DNA of 64,000 nucleotides from Escherichia phage WPEC2. Below the pieces are notes generated by a model. The model was not told the origin of the DNA. It did not search any database and saw only the letters and a program-made list of their open reading frames with translations. The stretch lies in sequence record PV691511.1; one strand, given 5' to 3'. Below, piece by piece: positions 30,524 through 32,874 of the stretch. Position numbers and translations under genes: made by a program. How positions within the stretch are numbered: the first letter of the stretch is position 1; each line of letters starts with the position of its first letter.

Positions 30524-30559
30524 TTGACAAACGTATCCTTCATATGTTAGGATACGTTT
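30524..30559 (+). promoter_or_regulatory. promoter CTATTGACAA class with overlapping 11-bp inverted repeat
   Basis: TTGACA 30524-30529, TAGGAT 30548-30553; AAACGTATCCT (30529-30539) inverted at 30549-30559. Confidence 0.5.
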
Positions 30560-30762
30560 ATCAAGTGTGGTAACAGGGTCGTTGACTTTTGTTAAGAGGG
30601 GCTTGCACTGCGGTAGTGTTAGAGACTACTTCTTCAGAGGTTAGCTACCAAAGAGGAAAAGGAATAGTCTCGGCTCAAGAACTTTTACGCTGAAAGTTGG
30701 GCTTGGTCTTAGAGAATGTAGCGGTTCTCTACAATCGTCAGCGTCTCTGTTACCACATTTAT

Positions 30763-30837
30763 GGCCCTGTAGCTCAATGGGAGAGCTGTCGGCTCATAAC
30801 CGATAGGTAGCTGGATCGAAACCAGCCAGGGCCACCA
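30763..30837 (+). tRNA. tRNA-Met (anticodon CAU; could be Ile2 or initiator)
   Basis: hand-folded cloverleaf: acceptor GGCCCTG/CAGGGCC, anticodon loop CTCATAA, encoded CCA. Confidence 0.7.
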
Positions 30838-30839
30838 AC

Positions 30840-30914
30840 GTCTTTATGGTGTAATGGATAGCACAGGAGTCTTCTAAACTCTTAGTCAAGGTTCGATTCC
30901 TTGTAAAGACACCA
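30840..30914 (+). tRNA. tRNA-Arg (anticodon UCU)
   Basis: acceptor GTCTTTA/TAAAGAC, anticodon loop CTTCTAA, T-arm CAAGG-TTCGATT-CCTTG, CCA. Confidence 0.7.
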
Positions 30915-31110
30915 GAACATTTTAACATGAATTAGCTCAAGTGATTTGAACCCACTACTGATCATGGTGGCAGAGAATGAGGCAAGTATGTCAGACATTA
31001 TAAACAAAGGCCACGGTTATATTAGAAGACATAAATGCTCGAAGAGCACCGTTCGTTGAGAACGGGGGTTGGTGGAGTCACCATTCATGGTAAAATGTTT
31101 TAAAAAACTA

Positions 31111-31140
31111 TTGACAACTAACATTATTTTATGTTAGATT
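31111..31140 (+). promoter_or_regulatory. promoter CTATTGACAA class
   Basis: TTGACA 31111-31116, TAGATT 31135-31140, 9 nt before tRNA-Ser. Confidence 0.5.
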
Positions 31141-31148
31141 ATAAGTAT

Positions 31149-31239
31149 GGAAGGGCAAATCGACGTGGCGACGAAAACGGTCTTGAAAACCGCCGAGCTT
31201 GAAAGAGCCTTGGGAGTTCGACTCTCCCTCCTTCCGCCA
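31149..31239 (+). tRNA. tRNA-Ser (anticodon UGA), type II
   Basis: acceptor GGAAGGG/TCCTTCC, anticodon loop CTTGAAA, long variable arm, G73, CCA. Confidence 0.7.
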
Positions 31240-31243
31240 GATT

Positions 31244-31329
31244 GGTAGATTGGTGAAATGGTAGCCACGACAGTTTGCTAAACTGTAGTCGGAAACGGCG
31301 TGTAGGTTCGAGTCCTACATCTACCGCCA
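31244..31329 (+). tRNA. tRNA-Ser (anticodon GCU), type II
   Basis: acceptor GGTAGAT/ATCTACC, anticodon arm ACAGT-TTGCTAA-ACTGT, long variable arm, CCA. Confidence 0.7.
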
Positions 31330-31459
31330 AGTTCTTTTTAATATAGCTTACTTTAATAGAGTAAACTTTCGGCAGATGGCCTCCACCATCTTACCGATAA
31401 CTCATAGTTAGTGGTGTGAACACTGGCTATTTTAAAAAGAATTTAAATATTAGTATTTA

Positions 31460-31547
31460 GGTGAGTTAATTCCGTAGGGGTAGCGGGGCAGACTGTAAAT
31501 CTGTTATCATTGCGATTCGGGTGGTTCGACTCCATCACTCACCACCA
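31460..31547 (+). tRNA. tRNA-Tyr (anticodon GUA), type II
   Basis: acceptor GGTGAGT/ACTCACC, anticodon arm CAGACTGTAAATCTG as in E. coli tRNA-Tyr, CCA. Confidence 0.65.
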
Positions 31548-31553
31548 AATTAA

Positions 31554-31639
31554 GATGAGTTGGCTGAATGGTTTAAGCGGCGGACTGTTAATCCGTGTTC
31601 GAAAGAACGATATAGGTTCAAATCCTATACTCATCGCCA
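31554..31639 (+). tRNA. type II tRNA with apparent GUU anticodon (Ser-like body, G73)
   Basis: acceptor GATGAGT/ACTCATC, 3-bp D stem, anticodon arm GCGGA-CTGTTAA-TCCGT, 15-nt variable hairpin, CCA. Confidence 0.5.
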
Positions 31640-31646
31640 GAATTAT

Positions 31647-31724
31647 GGACTTGTAGAGTTAAGGTAAACCCCCCAGTCGCCAAGAGGCTTCTGGAATTGC
31701 AGGTATCGAATCCTGCCGAGTCCC
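31647..31724 (+). ncRNA. tRNA-like RNA without canonical anticodon arm
   Basis: 7-bp acceptor GGACTTG/CGAGTCC and T-arm GCAGG-TATCGAAT-CCTGC, but middle is a CCAG..GCC-AAGA-GGC..CTGG tetraloop hairpin. Confidence 0.35.
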
Positions 31725-31730
31725 AGCTTT

Positions 31731-31805
31731 GCTCCTATAGTATAATGGCTATTACAACGGTTTTGTAATCCGTGGATCTCTGTTCGATTCAGAGTGGGAG
31801 CACCA
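31731..31805 (+). tRNA. tRNA-Thr (anticodon UGU)
   Basis: acceptor GCTCCTA/TGGGAGC, anticodon loop TTTGTAA, T-arm CTCTG-TTCGATT-CAGAG, CCA. Confidence 0.65.
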
Positions 31806-32080
31806 ACACAACATTAAGAGCACTGTGATTGATCGTCGTATCCTGTGCACAAGGTCTGTTCGAAAGACAGTGTTCTTAGTATTGTGTTGATCACACAAAA
31901 AGAGTTACCTGAAACTTGACCGGAGTAGGGTTGGATGGGGCAAAAGAAGAAGCGGCTCTCCCATCGACAGCAACGAAGAATAATATTTGACTTTGGTTTT
32001 GTATTATTTTAAGTTAGCTTACCGAACGTAGGGCTAGTCACCCAATGGGATACTCGTCACTGTCCCACTCAATAAAACTA

Positions 32081-32110
32081 TTGACAACCAATAGTAAAAT
32101 GTAGTATAGT
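32081..32110 (+). promoter_or_regulatory. promoter CTATTGACAA class
   Basis: TTGACA 32081-32086, 18 nt spacer, TATAGT 32105-32110, 12 nt before tRNA-Gly. Confidence 0.5.
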
Positions 32111-32121
32111 AAAGAGGTAGG

Positions 32122-32195
32122 GCGTTCTTGGTGTAGCGGTAGCATTCCGTCCTTCCAAGTCGGCGGCACGAGTTCGATCCTCGTAGAACGCTCCA
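32122..32195 (+). tRNA. tRNA-Gly (anticodon UCC)
   Basis: acceptor GCGTTCT/AGAACGC, anticodon loop CTTCCAA, T-arm ACGAG-TTCGATC-CTCGT, CCA. Confidence 0.65.
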
Positions 32196-32293
32196 AATTA
32201 TTTAATAAAGGGTTGCCAGAAAACTTTCTCTTTTACTCATGGTTTTCTCCTTCTCTCACACCTCTTCTGGTTGCCCTTCATTAAATGATTTAT

Positions 32294-32369
32294 TGGTTTG
32301 TAGTGTAGTCAGGTAGCACACGACACTTTGACTGTCGTAGGTTTGGTTCAAATCCAGACAGACCAGCCA
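32294..32369 (+). tRNA. tRNA-Gln (anticodon UUG)
   Basis: acceptor TGGTTTG/CAGACCA, anticodon arm CGACA-CTTTGAC-TGTCG, CCA. Confidence 0.65.
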
Positions 32370-32374
32370 TATAA

Positions 32375-32451
32375 CGGAATTTAGCTCAGTTTGGTAGAGC
32401 ATACGCTTTGGGAGCGTAGGGTCGCAGGTTCGAATCCTGCAATTCCGACCA
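32375..32451 (+). tRNA. tRNA-Pro (anticodon UGG)
   Basis: acceptor CGGAATT/AATTCCG, D-arm GCTC-AGTTTGGTA-GAGC, anticodon arm TACGC-TTTGGGA-GCGTA, CCA. Confidence 0.75.
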
Positions 32452-32457
32452 ATTTAA

Positions 32458-32531
32458 TGTTTCGTAGTTCAATGGTAGAACCCACGACTGATAATCGTGA
32501 GACACAAGTTCGATTCTTGTCGAAACAACCA
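32458..32531 (+). tRNA. tRNA-Ile (anticodon GAU)
   Basis: acceptor TGTTTCG/CGAAACA, anticodon arm CACGA-CTGATAA-TCGTG, T-arm ACAAG-TTCGATT-CTTGT, CCA. Confidence 0.75.
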
Positions 32532-32533
32532 AT

Positions 32534-32605
32534 TTCCCGTTAGACTTACAGGATAAGAGTTCCACAACTTATTGTGATGCTGGTTCGAATCCAGCACGGG
32601 ATACC
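32534..32605 (+). ncRNA. tRNA-like RNA without canonical anticodon arm
   Basis: acceptor TTCCCGT/ACGGGAT (U1-U72 mismatch), perfect T-arm GCTGG-TTCGAAT-CCAGC, middle is CACAA-CTTA-TTGTG tetraloop hairpin. Confidence 0.35.
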
Positions 32606-32609
32606 TAAT

Positions 32610-32688
32610 AGCGGGATAGAGGAGTCTGGTCGTCCTCGCCAGTTTCATATGCTGGAGATCATTGGTTCAAATCCAATTCCCGCCTCCA
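32610..32688 (+). tRNA. tRNA-Met (anticodon CAU) with A1-C72 mismatch
   Basis: anticodon arm CCAGT-TTCATAT-GCTGG, T-arm ATTGG-TTCAAAT-CCAAT, CCA. Confidence 0.6.
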
Positions 32689-32803
32689 AATATCGCTTGC
32701 CAGCGGTATCTTTGAAGACCTTGCCTGGTTCCTTCTAAGATGGAGGGGTGCGACTCCTTAACGCACAATTATAATAAAGCATTTCAAATTAACAGTATTT
32801 ATT

Positions 32804-32827
32804 AGCCTCCTTATTGGAGGCTTTTTG
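32804..32827 (+). terminator. rho-independent terminator closing the tRNA island
   Basis: AGCCTCC-ttatt-GGAGGCT followed by TTTTTG. Confidence 0.65.
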
Positions 32828-32845
32828 CTATCTATTGAATAAAAC

Positions 32846-32874
32846 TTGACTTATTATTTTTTATATGTTAAGAT
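32846..32874 (+). promoter_or_regulatory. sigma70-like promoter
   Basis: TTGACT 32846-32851, 17 nt spacer, TAAGAT; AGGAGG RBS and ATG 32896 follow. Confidence 0.5.

Follow-up and report, generated by a model that had tools for sequence, protein, structure and literature searches.

Predicted host-type promoters and conserved structured RNA elements in the tRNA island of a Phapecoctavirus coliphage

How a phage tRNA island is read, and what fills the stretches between its tRNAs, are the questions raised by a locus of Escherichia phage WPEC2 (PV691511.1), a Phapecoctavirus, that is, a phAPEC8-like E. coli myovirus. We analysed a 64,000-nt stretch of its DNA (hereafter the window), and all features described below lie on the + strand. 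The tRNAs are, in order, tRNA-Met/Ile2(CAU) (30763-30837) and tRNA-Arg(UCU) (30840-30914), both called by ARAGORN and Rfam; tRNA-Ser(UGA) (31149-31239) and tRNA-Ser(GCU) (31244-31329); tRNA-Tyr (31460-31547), tRNA-Asn (31554-31639) and tRNA-Thr (31731-31805); tRNA-Gly(UCC) (32122..32195, ARAGORN and Rfam); and tRNA-Gln, tRNA-Pro, tRNA-Ile(GAU) and tRNA-Met(CAU) (32294..32688). Besides these there are two tRNA-like pseudo-elements, one at ~31647-31724 and one between the last two tRNAs at ~32535-32602. ARAGORN calls ten tRNAs and Rfam at gathering score 11, adding Tyr at 31460-31544. The twelfth, tRNA-Ser(UGA), is a weak call that tRNAscan-SE makes only in the near-identical phage ASO2A, and in the window Rfam scores it at 37 bits, as tRNA-Sec and below threshold. 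A previous sequence-only reading had described twelve tRNAs in four groups; the count of twelve stands on these combined calls, but spacing divides them into five groups. After the last tRNA, the stretch 32689..32830 consists of a 3' trailer (F), 90-94% conserved in phi92 and UAB_1, and then an intrinsic terminator with a T-run at 32804-32822, which is also annotated in ASO2A and which is the sole canonical terminator that the terminator scan finds in the island.

Promoter-like elements within the island

The sequence-only reading had placed near-identical promoter elements ahead of tRNAs at 30524, 31111 and 32081, with the same motif before a head gene at 54628, and had proposed a motif search. 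Our exact search agrees with it: CTATTGACAA occurs only four times in the 64-kb window, at 30521, 31108, 32078 and 54625 (the earlier coordinates being the starts of TTGACA rather than of CTATTGACAA), and all four copies are intergenic and on the + strand, three within the tRNA island and one ahead of an XkdF-type prohead protease gene (54693-55172). A longer form, AACTATTGACAAC, is exact at 31106 and 32076 and has one mismatch at 30519.

Each copy lies within a predicted sigma-70 promoter. P1 (30516..30560) has an A-rich upstream tract, a TTGACA -35 hexamer (30524-30529), an 18-bp spacer and a TG-extended -10 hexamer, TAGGAT (30548-30553), with a predicted start near A30560. P2 (31103..31147) combines TTGACA at 31111-31116 with a TG-extended TAGATT at 31135-31140, and its predicted start lies 0-2 nt ahead of the first base of tRNA-Ser(UGA), G31149. 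P3 (32073..32117), with TTGACA at 32081-32086 and TATAGT at 32105-32110, matches the consensus at 11 of 12 positions and is predicted to start ~5 nt ahead of tRNA-Gly; P2 and P3 likewise have 18-bp spacers. The fourth CTATTGACAA promoter (54620..54669; TTGACA at 54628, N17, TAGACT) is nested in an inverted repeat that is followed by TGTTTTT. After the terminator comes P4 (32838..32881), with TTGACT at 32846-32851, N17 and a TG-extended TAAGAT at 32869-32874, which is predicted to serve the ORF at 32896-33192. The design common to these sites is an A-rich UP-like tract, a consensus -35 region (TTGACAA), a slightly long spacer of 17-18 bp and a TAnnnT -10 hexamer; the TG extension is present in P1, P2 and P4, where TGn would compensate for the TAnnnT hexamer, and absent from P3 and the 54628 promoter. 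Counting against these assignments, the 18-bp spacers and the non-consensus -10 hexamers TAGGAT and TAGATT are suboptimal. ASO2A's authors annotated nine promoters genome-wide and none in the island, which also counts against them, and the island promoters carry no annotation in the Phapecoctavirus records that we examined.

The same architecture is found well beyond the island. The pattern TTGAC[AT]-N16-18-TAnnnT has 29 sites in the window, compared with 7.6 +/- 2.6 expected from Markov shuffles; 17 of the 29 are intergenic, although intergenic DNA makes up 15% of the window, and 16 of these 17 are co-oriented with the genes. CTATTGACAA is thus no special element but the form that a promoter class present throughout the genome takes at these sites. 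Relatives have GTA, GTG, TAC or CTC in place of its CTA, and the shared CTA is a lineage-specific detail of this class, which is of an early/constitutive type.

In relatives whose flanks are ~80% identical, and also in the genus Justusliebigvirus, the hexamers are conserved and the spacer bases drift. Specifically, the P1 -35 hexamer is invariant among relatives, and those of the phiWec179 type combine it with a TAAGAT -10 hexamer and a 17-bp spacer. At P2, the window, phiWec179/190, PsgM04F, phi92 and UAB_1 agree in both hexamers and in TG, with differences at 5-6 of the 18 bases of the spacer. P3 is conserved throughout Phapecoctavirus, and before tRNA-Gly, at P3's distance, phi92 and UAB_1 have a non-homologous promoter. 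The 54628 promoter is kept in both phiWec179 and phi92. Near-consensus sequence, placement, orientation and conserved hexamers together argue, at the level of sequence, that all four copies are sigma-70 promoters, in line with the promoter reading proposed earlier.

A comparable set has been described in rV5, where 33 sigma-70-like promoters, 11 of them with extended -10 regions, are spread genome-wide (PMC3606486). As in rV5 and PVP-SE1, the promoters of the window combine a near-consensus TTGACA with TAnnnT and carry TGn in part of the set; the rV5-like promoters are scattered through early as well as structural regions, and it is the unmodified host RNA polymerase that is predicted to use them (PMC3606486). 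The PVP-SE1 record annotates a promoter within its tRNA island. Unlike the rV5-type promoters, those of the island are predicted to start transcripts at a tRNA 5' end or within a few nucleotides of one, or else at the base of a structured leader. Since it belongs to a genome-wide class already described for rV5, the promoter part of the island appears real but ordinary, and this conserved host-type class, known from rV5-like phages, adds little in itself. Its mapping improves annotation in Phapecoctavirus, a genus whose phages serve in therapy and biocontrol, and internal promoters would explain possible strong tRNA expression independent of upstream genes.

The inverted repeat over P1

P1 is overlapped by a perfect 11-bp inverted repeat (30529-30539 / 30549-30559), which the sequence-only reading took for a possible operator. 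The repeat is present and extends to 16-nt arms (30524-30539 / 30549-30564) with 94% complementarity; since the arms reach 16 nt, it takes in the -35 hexamer, and it runs from there to about +4 (30524..30564). Folded as RNA it reaches -19.2 kcal/mol (z -4.6), and its homologue in phiWec179 reaches -17.9 (z -4.5) with compensatory changes. Specifically, the arms AAACGTATCCT / AGGATACGTTT of the window become AAGCGTGTCTT / AAGATACGCTT in the phiWec179-type lineage; pairing is kept throughout, since two pairs changed on both sides and one became a G.U wobble on the + strand, indicating that the repeat behaves as a hairpin and not as a protein recognition sequence.

A dimeric phage or host repressor that bound the dyad and shut off P1 would fit the span from the -35 hexamer through +4, which is the classical position for repression, and the retention of the repeat in a diverged lineage. 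We nevertheless regard this operator reading as improbable. Among relatives it is complementarity alone, and not the half-site, that is conserved, and arms of 16 nt that stand 9 nt apart resemble a hairpin and exceed the usual length of an operator. The P1 half-site is absent from P2, P3 and P4, and the repeats that P2 and P3 do have are 7 bp long, unrelated and not conserved. The repeat around the 54628 promoter shares only TATCC/GGATA with that of P1, at a different spacing, and is unchanged in phiWec179, where the P1 arms have changed. A search of the neighbouring ORFs for a DNA-binding protein or domain detected none; the small ones among them have no Pfam match, and their PHROG matches are all to groups of unknown function. 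The repeat is therefore probably not an operator. Most likely it forms an RNA hairpin, and only in read-through transcripts from upstream ORFs, where it would stabilise the 3' end or serve in processing. As a candidate intrinsic terminator the hairpin was rejected: the terminator scan does not call it, and the TTTAT after its core takes part in the pairing of the extended stem.

Structured RNA elements between the tRNAs

The sequence-only reading passed over the non-tRNA stretches of the island, which are conserved structured RNAs. Five elements, A, B, C, D1 and E, are closed by helices of 14-25 bp and fold with z-scores of -3.4 to -5.7 relative to shuffles, and in the window these modules adjoin tRNA ends. 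Element A (30563..30760) makes up the leader that runs from the P1 start to tRNA-Met/Ile2, with a 22-bp closing helix around a multibranch core (MFE -76.8, z -5.5); 99.7% of its pair cells are paired, compared with 40-48% in slid controls, and eight pairs show double changes. Element B (30915..31104; z -4.4) also occurs in the tRNA islands of Seunavirus (Vequintavirinae), directly before tRNA-Leu. In a nine-sequence alignment, 10 of its 43 pairs are compensatory, and its covariation score of 0.254, against 0.126 in shuffles, is reached by 0 of 500 shuffles. Element C (31331..31445; z -4.1) is also found in Justusliebigvirus (phi92, UAB_1), and across nine sequences 99.7% of its cells are paired, with six double-change pairs.

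Between tRNA-Thr and P3 lie two further elements. D1 (31806..31887; z -3.4) is a ~21-bp hairpin whose loop, GAUUGAUCGUCGU..CAAGGUCUGYUCGAA, is conserved; members of its family are found in many temperate and other enterobacterial phages, their stems covary, the loop motif is present in 28 IMG/VR contigs, and in 3 of 10 loci checked the element adjoins tRNA-Arg, standing directly before it in prophage-like contigs. D2 (31888..32070) consists of two conserved blocks with small covarying hairpins around a variable centre, which in the window's lineage only holds a promoter-like site (31987-32015); it is taken as non-coding, since the ORF from its ATG at 31935 is stopped at codon 3 in relatives. 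Element E (32196..32290; z -5.7) has a stem of ~24 bp and a conserved pyrimidine-rich loop in which CUCAUGGUUUUCUCCUUC is exactly complementary to a Shine-Dalgarno sequence plus AUG. Four independent stem variants of E (window, phi92, L194 and L203) all form stems of 25-26 bp around the same loop.

In A, B and C, covariation is higher than in shuffled and in slid controls, and part of this signal is phylogenetic because the independent lineages are few (two for A, about four for B, E and C). The G.U pairs of these three RNAs fall on the + strand. None of the spacers A-E matches an Rfam 15 family at gathering score or at E <= 5; the non-tRNA Rfam matches in the island, RyhB and MicA, are confined to the 3' trailer/terminator region and lie far below gathering score. 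Conserved ORFs were not found in the spacers, which contain none led by a Shine-Dalgarno sequence, and one candidate is broken in relatives. Of the two parts of the island, the promoters and the gaps, it is the second that gives the less expected and more useful result, namely that unannotated stretches hold conserved covarying RNA structures, some of them common to more than one phage subfamily.

Proposed transcription and processing of the island

Taken together, we consider it likely that the 2.3-kb island, in which 12 tRNAs, two tRNA-like relics and at least five modules of structured ncRNA line up in one orientation, is read with sigma-70 from P1, P2 and P3. Host RNA polymerase with sigma-70 would start at these internal promoters, and read-through from upstream promoters at 29479 and 29967 would probably add to internal initiation. 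The three units are expected to be nested and additive, all ending at 32804-32822, since no canonical terminator lies between the promoters; beyond the terminator, P4 would restart transcription for the next ORF. Transcripts would begin at module boundaries, at tRNA-Ser(UGA) for P2, near tRNA-Gly for P3 and, for P1, 3 nt ahead of the closing helix of element A. Because each spacer runs from the 3' end of one tRNA to the 5' end of the next, tRNA processing would excise it as a discrete RNA: RNase P and 3' trimming would free each spacer with its ends locked in a helix of 14-25 bp. The longest helices, those of A, D1 and E, are plausible RNase III substrates, and B and C would be less suited since their closing helices are shorter than the ~20 bp usually needed.

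Two other accounts deal with the promoters and with the spacers. The internal CTATTGACAA sites might be look-alikes without a function, or relics left when a cassette was duplicated, with the island read as one long precursor from 29479 or 29967 only; promoter-like sites do exist upstream and might in principle account for all transcription, the units are not divided by terminators, and the extra bases shared by three copies (AACTATTGACAAC) may come from copying. What makes this very unlikely is that the hexamers and TG are kept while spacers and flanks diverge by ~20%, even across genera, that phi92 has a promoter of unrelated sequence at the position of P3 before tRNA-Gly, that the likeness of P1, P2 and P3 stops at the promoter elements, and that sites of the class are intergenic and co-oriented far beyond chance. 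The closed spacers, for their part, could be selfish DNA (MITE-like insertions with terminal inverted repeats, or homing relics) or genes for micro-proteins. Such islands are indeed mosaics in which modules come and go, as ASO2A and phiWec have 88 nt inserted between Gln and Pro, phiWec190 and PsgM04F have an rnaD-like module, and UAB_1 has an HNH gene; the stem of D1 keeps its sequence in unrelated phages, as might be expected of a terminal inverted repeat, and some records annotate small ORFs in the island. Covariation, however, extends to internal helices as well as terminal ones, G.U pairs are specific to the transcribed strand, and in D1 and E it is the loops that are conserved and the stems that vary. 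The annotated ORFs have no Shine-Dalgarno sequences and are not conserved, and we saw neither a transposase nor target-site duplications, so we think it improbable that the spacers are of either kind.

Similar arrangements are known elsewhere. The T4 tRNA region has several promoters, and RNase III takes part in the processing of its precursors. The T4 cluster also encodes two small stable RNAs, C and D (species 1 and 2), whose role is unexplained (PMC3014915). Like these, the elements of the window are RNAs in a phage tRNA cluster, on the same strand as the tRNAs and adjoining them; unlike them, A-F show no similarity to rnaC or rnaD beyond matches the size of a T-loop, and T4 RNA D lacks the long closing helix that the window modules have. 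Spacers of bacterial tRNA operons, such as the E. coli 3'ETS-leuZ sponge RNA, are freed by tRNA-processing enzymes and can act in trans; compared with these, the phage modules have far more structure, and each is conserved as a cassette in its own right. In rRNA operons and T7 early mRNAs, RNase III stems are long helices that join the ends of a module within a polycistronic precursor. The helices of A, D1 and E, at 21-25 bp, resemble such stems, those of B and C, at 14-18 bp, are shorter, and the conserved sequence in loops and cores suggests that the modules are more than a cleavage signal.

More tentatively, at somewhat short of even odds in our judgement, the spacers A, B, C, D1 and E could represent at least five previously undescribed families of phage ncRNA that are excised by tRNA-processing enzymes and act in trans, and that form, together with the rnaD-like module, a modular pool in the class of T4 RNA C and RNA D. 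That module, which is absent from the window, is identical to T4 rnaD at 31 of 36 positions in phiWec190 and PsgM04F, with one compensatory change. If the spacers do act in trans, element E is the clearest candidate: on a covarying stem of ~25 bp it presents an invariant loop whose perfect complementarity to a Shine-Dalgarno sequence plus AUG (GAAGGAGAAAACCAUGAG), and whose partial mimicry of the 3' tail of 16S rRNA, suggest an anti-RBS regulator or a decoy. These families offer a comparative handle on the old question of what T4 RNA C and D are for, and E, B and D1 are concrete candidates for functional work; B is common to two phage subfamilies, and D1 occurs in dozens of temperate phages, in some of them directly 5' of tRNA-Arg.

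Predicted promoters of the tRNA island

We examined the tRNA island together with its relatives in order to interpret the promoter-like motif repeated within it. Escherichia phages WPEC4 and WPEC6 match the region 30300-33100 at 100% identity, and many phAPEC8-like phages (genus Phapecoctavirus, subfamily Stephanstirmvirinae) match it at 98-99.8%; the island is an already known feature of phAPEC8-like genomes. For this island, the curated record of the relative ASO2A annotates 12 tRNAs (tRNAscan-SE) and a terminator, and no promoter. The sequence-only reading had counted twelve tRNAs in four groups. 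The number holds, with 10 called by ARAGORN, 11 by Rfam, and the twelfth, tRNA-Ser(UGA) at 31149-31239, weak in the window (37 bits) yet annotated in ASO2A; by spacing, the groups are five. Two tRNA-like relics (~31647-31724 and ~32535-32602), each with an acceptor-like stem and a good T-arm, are called by neither ARAGORN nor Rfam; both show 96-99% conservation that extends to the phiWec lineage. The island contains a single canonical terminator, at 32804-32822.

An exact search for CTATTGACAA returns four copies in the 64 kb (30521, 31108, 32078, and 54625), every one on the + strand. These are the near-identical elements previously noticed at 30524, 31111, and 32081, with the same motif at 54628, those positions being the first base of TTGACA. 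A consensus scan describes the three island copies as P1 (30524; TTGACA-N18-TAGGAT, TG-extended), P2 (31111; TTGACA-N18-TAGATT, TG-extended), and P3 (32081; TTGACA-N18-TATAGT, 11/12 matches), and finds P4 (32846; TTGACT-N17-TAAGAT, TG-extended) directly after the terminator. Across the window, TTGAC[AT]-N16-18-TAnnnT occurs at 29 sites compared to 7.6 +/- 2.6 in Markov shuffles; 17 of the 29 are intergenic, where intergenic DNA makes up 15% of the window, and 16 of these 17 are co-oriented with genes. For phage rV5, 33 sigma-70-like promoters were described genome-wide, including 11 whose -10 region is extended, and the promoter-class distribution of the window matches that of rV5 (PMC3606486).

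Comparison with relatives gives phylogenetic footprints of these promoters. In phiWec179, phiWec190, and PsgM04F, the island spacers share only ~80% identity with the window, and P1, P2, and P3 are found at homologous positions. P2 has the same -35, TG, and -10 in every lineage, among them the Justusliebigvirus phages phi92 and UAB_1, with differences at 5-6 of its 18 spacer bases. In phiWec-type relatives P1 keeps TTGACA, with TAGGAT changed to TAAGAT and a spacer of 17 bp. P3 is conserved within the genus, and phi92 carries TTGACA-N18-TAGAGT with an unrelated spacer sequence at the same distance upstream of tRNA-Gly. In terms of geometry, P2, with its -10 ending at 31140, would leave a leader of 0-2 nt before tRNA-Ser(UGA), whose first base is G31149; P3, with its -10 ending at 32110, would leave one of ~5 nt before tRNA-Gly, which begins at 32122; and the P1 -10 ends at 30553, with the closing helix of spacer element A starting at 30563. 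Class behaviour, footprints, and geometry thus make the promoter reading of the motif well supported, and we infer initiation itself by sigma-70 polymerase at P1, P2, and P3 from these sequence features. The CTA ahead of TTGACA varies among relatives (GTA, GTG, TAC, or CTC), and the mutual similarity of P1, P2, and P3 is confined to the promoter elements; therefore, we rejected CTATTGACAA as a special element and regard it as the form that a general promoter class takes locally. The promoters are ordinary, new members of a class already known. A literature search found no transcriptomes of the subfamily Stephanstirmvirinae.

Host sigma-70 RNA polymerase would initiate at P1, P2, and P3, supplementing any transcription that reads through from 29479 and 29967. 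Since no terminator precedes 32804, transcription of the downstream tRNAs would add up over the units upstream of them. The promoter at 54628 is conserved in phiWec179 and phi92 and lies upstream of an XkdF-type prohead protease gene. It sits inside a conserved inverted repeat (54635-54680; AACAACAAATATCC / GGATATCTGTTTTT) followed by TGTTTTT. The resulting hairpin resembles a terminator, places the -10 in the loop, and is kept in both of these relatives.

Two further promoter-like sites, 29479 (+) and 49617 (-), share an unusual -10 (TTGACT-N17/18-atgcTACCCTa) and lie at borders between divergently oriented gene blocks; the site with the TACCCT -10 is conserved in ASO2A, phiWec179, EF1-1, and ukendt. 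Another, TTGACT-N17-TAAGTT at 31987-32015, occupies the variable centre of spacer element D2 only in the window/ASO2A/ukendt lineage, with unrelated sequence in its place in EF1-1 and the phiWec types.

The inverted repeat over the first promoter

The sequence-only reading had proposed that a perfect 11-bp inverted repeat over P1 could be an operator. The repeat is present as described and extends further, to 16-nt arms (30524-30539 / 30549-30564) with 94% complementarity. An operator is expected to conserve its half-site sequence and to recur at co-regulated promoters. Here the arms drift from AAACGTATCCT / AGGATACGTTT in the window to AAGCGTGTCTT / AAGATACGCTT in the phiWec179 lineage, the repeat does not recur at the other promoters, and no DNA-binding protein is found among the ORFs neighbouring P1, leaving the operator idea unsupported. 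What the phiWec179 lineage keeps is the pairing: two positions are altered on both arms (A-T to G-C and C-G to T-A), and a third is now G.T, which is tolerated only in + strand RNA. The predicted hairpin folds at -19.2 kcal/mol (z ~-4.6) in the window and -17.9 kcal/mol (z ~-4.5) in that lineage. We rejected an intrinsic terminator at this position because the hairpin lacks a free U-run; the terminator scan is also silent here. On the simplest reading, an RNA hairpin forms in read-through transcripts from the upstream ORFs (stop codon 30514-30516), where it might act as a 3' stabiliser or a processing structure directly ahead of element A. Inverted repeats of 7 bp at P2 and P3 are unconserved in relatives and were treated as chance.

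Predicted structured RNAs between the tRNAs

The non-tRNA stretches A, B, C, D1, and E have ends that pair, and they fold with far greater stability than their shuffles: A (30563-30760) at -76.8 kcal/mol with z -5.5, B (30915-31104) with z -4.4, C (31331-31445) with z -4.1, D1 (31806-31887) with z -3.4, and E (32196-32290) with z -5.7. None of A-E matched a family in Rfam 15, even at E <= 5, and we found no paralogy among A-F, where F is the 3' trailer (32689-32830). In A, standard pairs fill 99.7% of pair cells and eight pairs are changed on both sides, compared to 40-48% paired in slid controls. Unannotated gaps in the tRNA islands of Seunavirus contain homologues of B with ~70% identity, and the B alignment, which includes PVP-SE1, GAP31, SSE121, 4MG, and Salmonella phage 19, shows compensatory changes in 10 of 43 pairs and a covariation score of 0.254 versus 0.126 in shuffles (0/500 as high). 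C is common to the window, phi92, and UAB_1, with 99.7% of cells paired and double changes in six pairs. The G.U pairs in the A, B, and C alignments are those of the + strand. Covariation, drawn from a small number of independent lineages (two to four), thus supports structured RNA for A, B, and C. Scanning IMG/VR with the 14-mer GGTGGAGTCACCAT gave chance matches only; with longer patterns for A and B, the matches were limited to a few Seunavirus or phiWec-like contigs, so large alignments were not obtained. D2 is non-coding and has two conserved blocks, in which small hairpins covary.

We also considered whether the spacers are coding and rejected this. Their ORFs of at least 20 aa lack SD sequences, save one (ATG 31935) that meets a stop at codon 3 in relatives, and the small ORFs annotated here in some records are without SD and unconserved. 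By this comparative analysis, the putative spacer RNAs moderately raise the interest of the locus.

Every spacer module starts within 0-2 nt of the upstream tRNA 3' end. On the other side, the gap to the downstream tRNA 5' end is 0-3 nt for A and E, for B in Seunavirus, and for D1 in prophage-like contigs, and C ends ~14 nt upstream of tRNA-Tyr. Since module ends abut tRNA ends, RNase P and 3'-end trimming enzymes would free discrete RNAs with their ends locked in a helix, and the helices of A, D1, and E (21-25 bp) could also be RNase III sites.

Element E occurs with four stem variants (the window, the phi92 type, and IMG/VR contigs L194 and L203), which we folded one by one because MAFFT/RNAalifold misaligned its 3' arm. 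All have stems of 25-26 bp and an identical pyrimidine-rich loop. This loop (32236-32253; CUCAUGGUUUUCUCCUUC) is the exact complement of GAAGGAGAAAACCAUGAG, an SD plus AUG, and contains CUCCUU, like the 16S rRNA 3' tail; within the window, a search for complementary targets with at most three mismatches returned only E itself. The minus strand of the loop would form the start of a 12-aa mini-ORF of unconserved length, a reading of E disfavoured by the absence of synonymous variation.

Members of the predicted D1 hairpin family, with a conserved loop and a partly covarying stem, occur widely among enterobacterial phages, both temperate and other. The conserved loop is found in 28 IMG/VR contigs, mostly prophage-like, and D1 is also present in a Klebsiella temperate phage beside four tRNAs and twice in a Sashavirus; besides the window copy, the family comprises L153:690-778, L154:690-772 and 856-948, and loci L158-L185. 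Many ~45 kb phages carry the 3' arm of D1, GTGCTCTTnCCGTTGTGGTGAAT, with 96-100% conservation. D1 adjoins tRNA-Arg(UCU) directly in 3 of 10 loci checked, sometimes fused to the tRNA 5' end.

Island mosaicism and genome arrangement

This island has its closest precedent in the tRNA region of T4, where the stable RNAs C and D are encoded as well (PMC3014915). We found no homology of A-F to T4 rnaC or rnaD. An rnaD-like module, absent from the window, is present in the same island of phiWec190 (L004:2126-2240) and PsgM04F (L007:4462-4576), between a tRNA-like relic and tRNA-Thr; it matches the 5' part of T4 rnaD (species 2 RNA) at 31 of 36 positions, and its first hairpin carries a compensatory change. 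Its presence there suggests that tRNA-linked phage RNAs form a shared, modular pool.

In relatives (L002:3570-3662, L003:3065-3157, and L004:3052-3251), an insertion of 88-200 nt lies exactly between tRNA-Gln and tRNA-Pro, which are adjacent in the window. It folds no better than shuffles and exemplifies cassette-like mosaicism in these islands.

A 16.7-kb minus-strand block encoding SprT-like, TerC, ComF-like PRTase, NrdD, and UvrD helicase genes separates the island from the lysis/terminase module (junctions 33270/33271 and 49936/49937). The block is ~56 kb distant in all GenBank relatives and the junction is contiguous in no record, its placement reflecting either a rearranged genome or an artefact of assembly. 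In ASO2A, phiWec179, and phi92, the terminase lies ~1.3 kb from the tRNA island.
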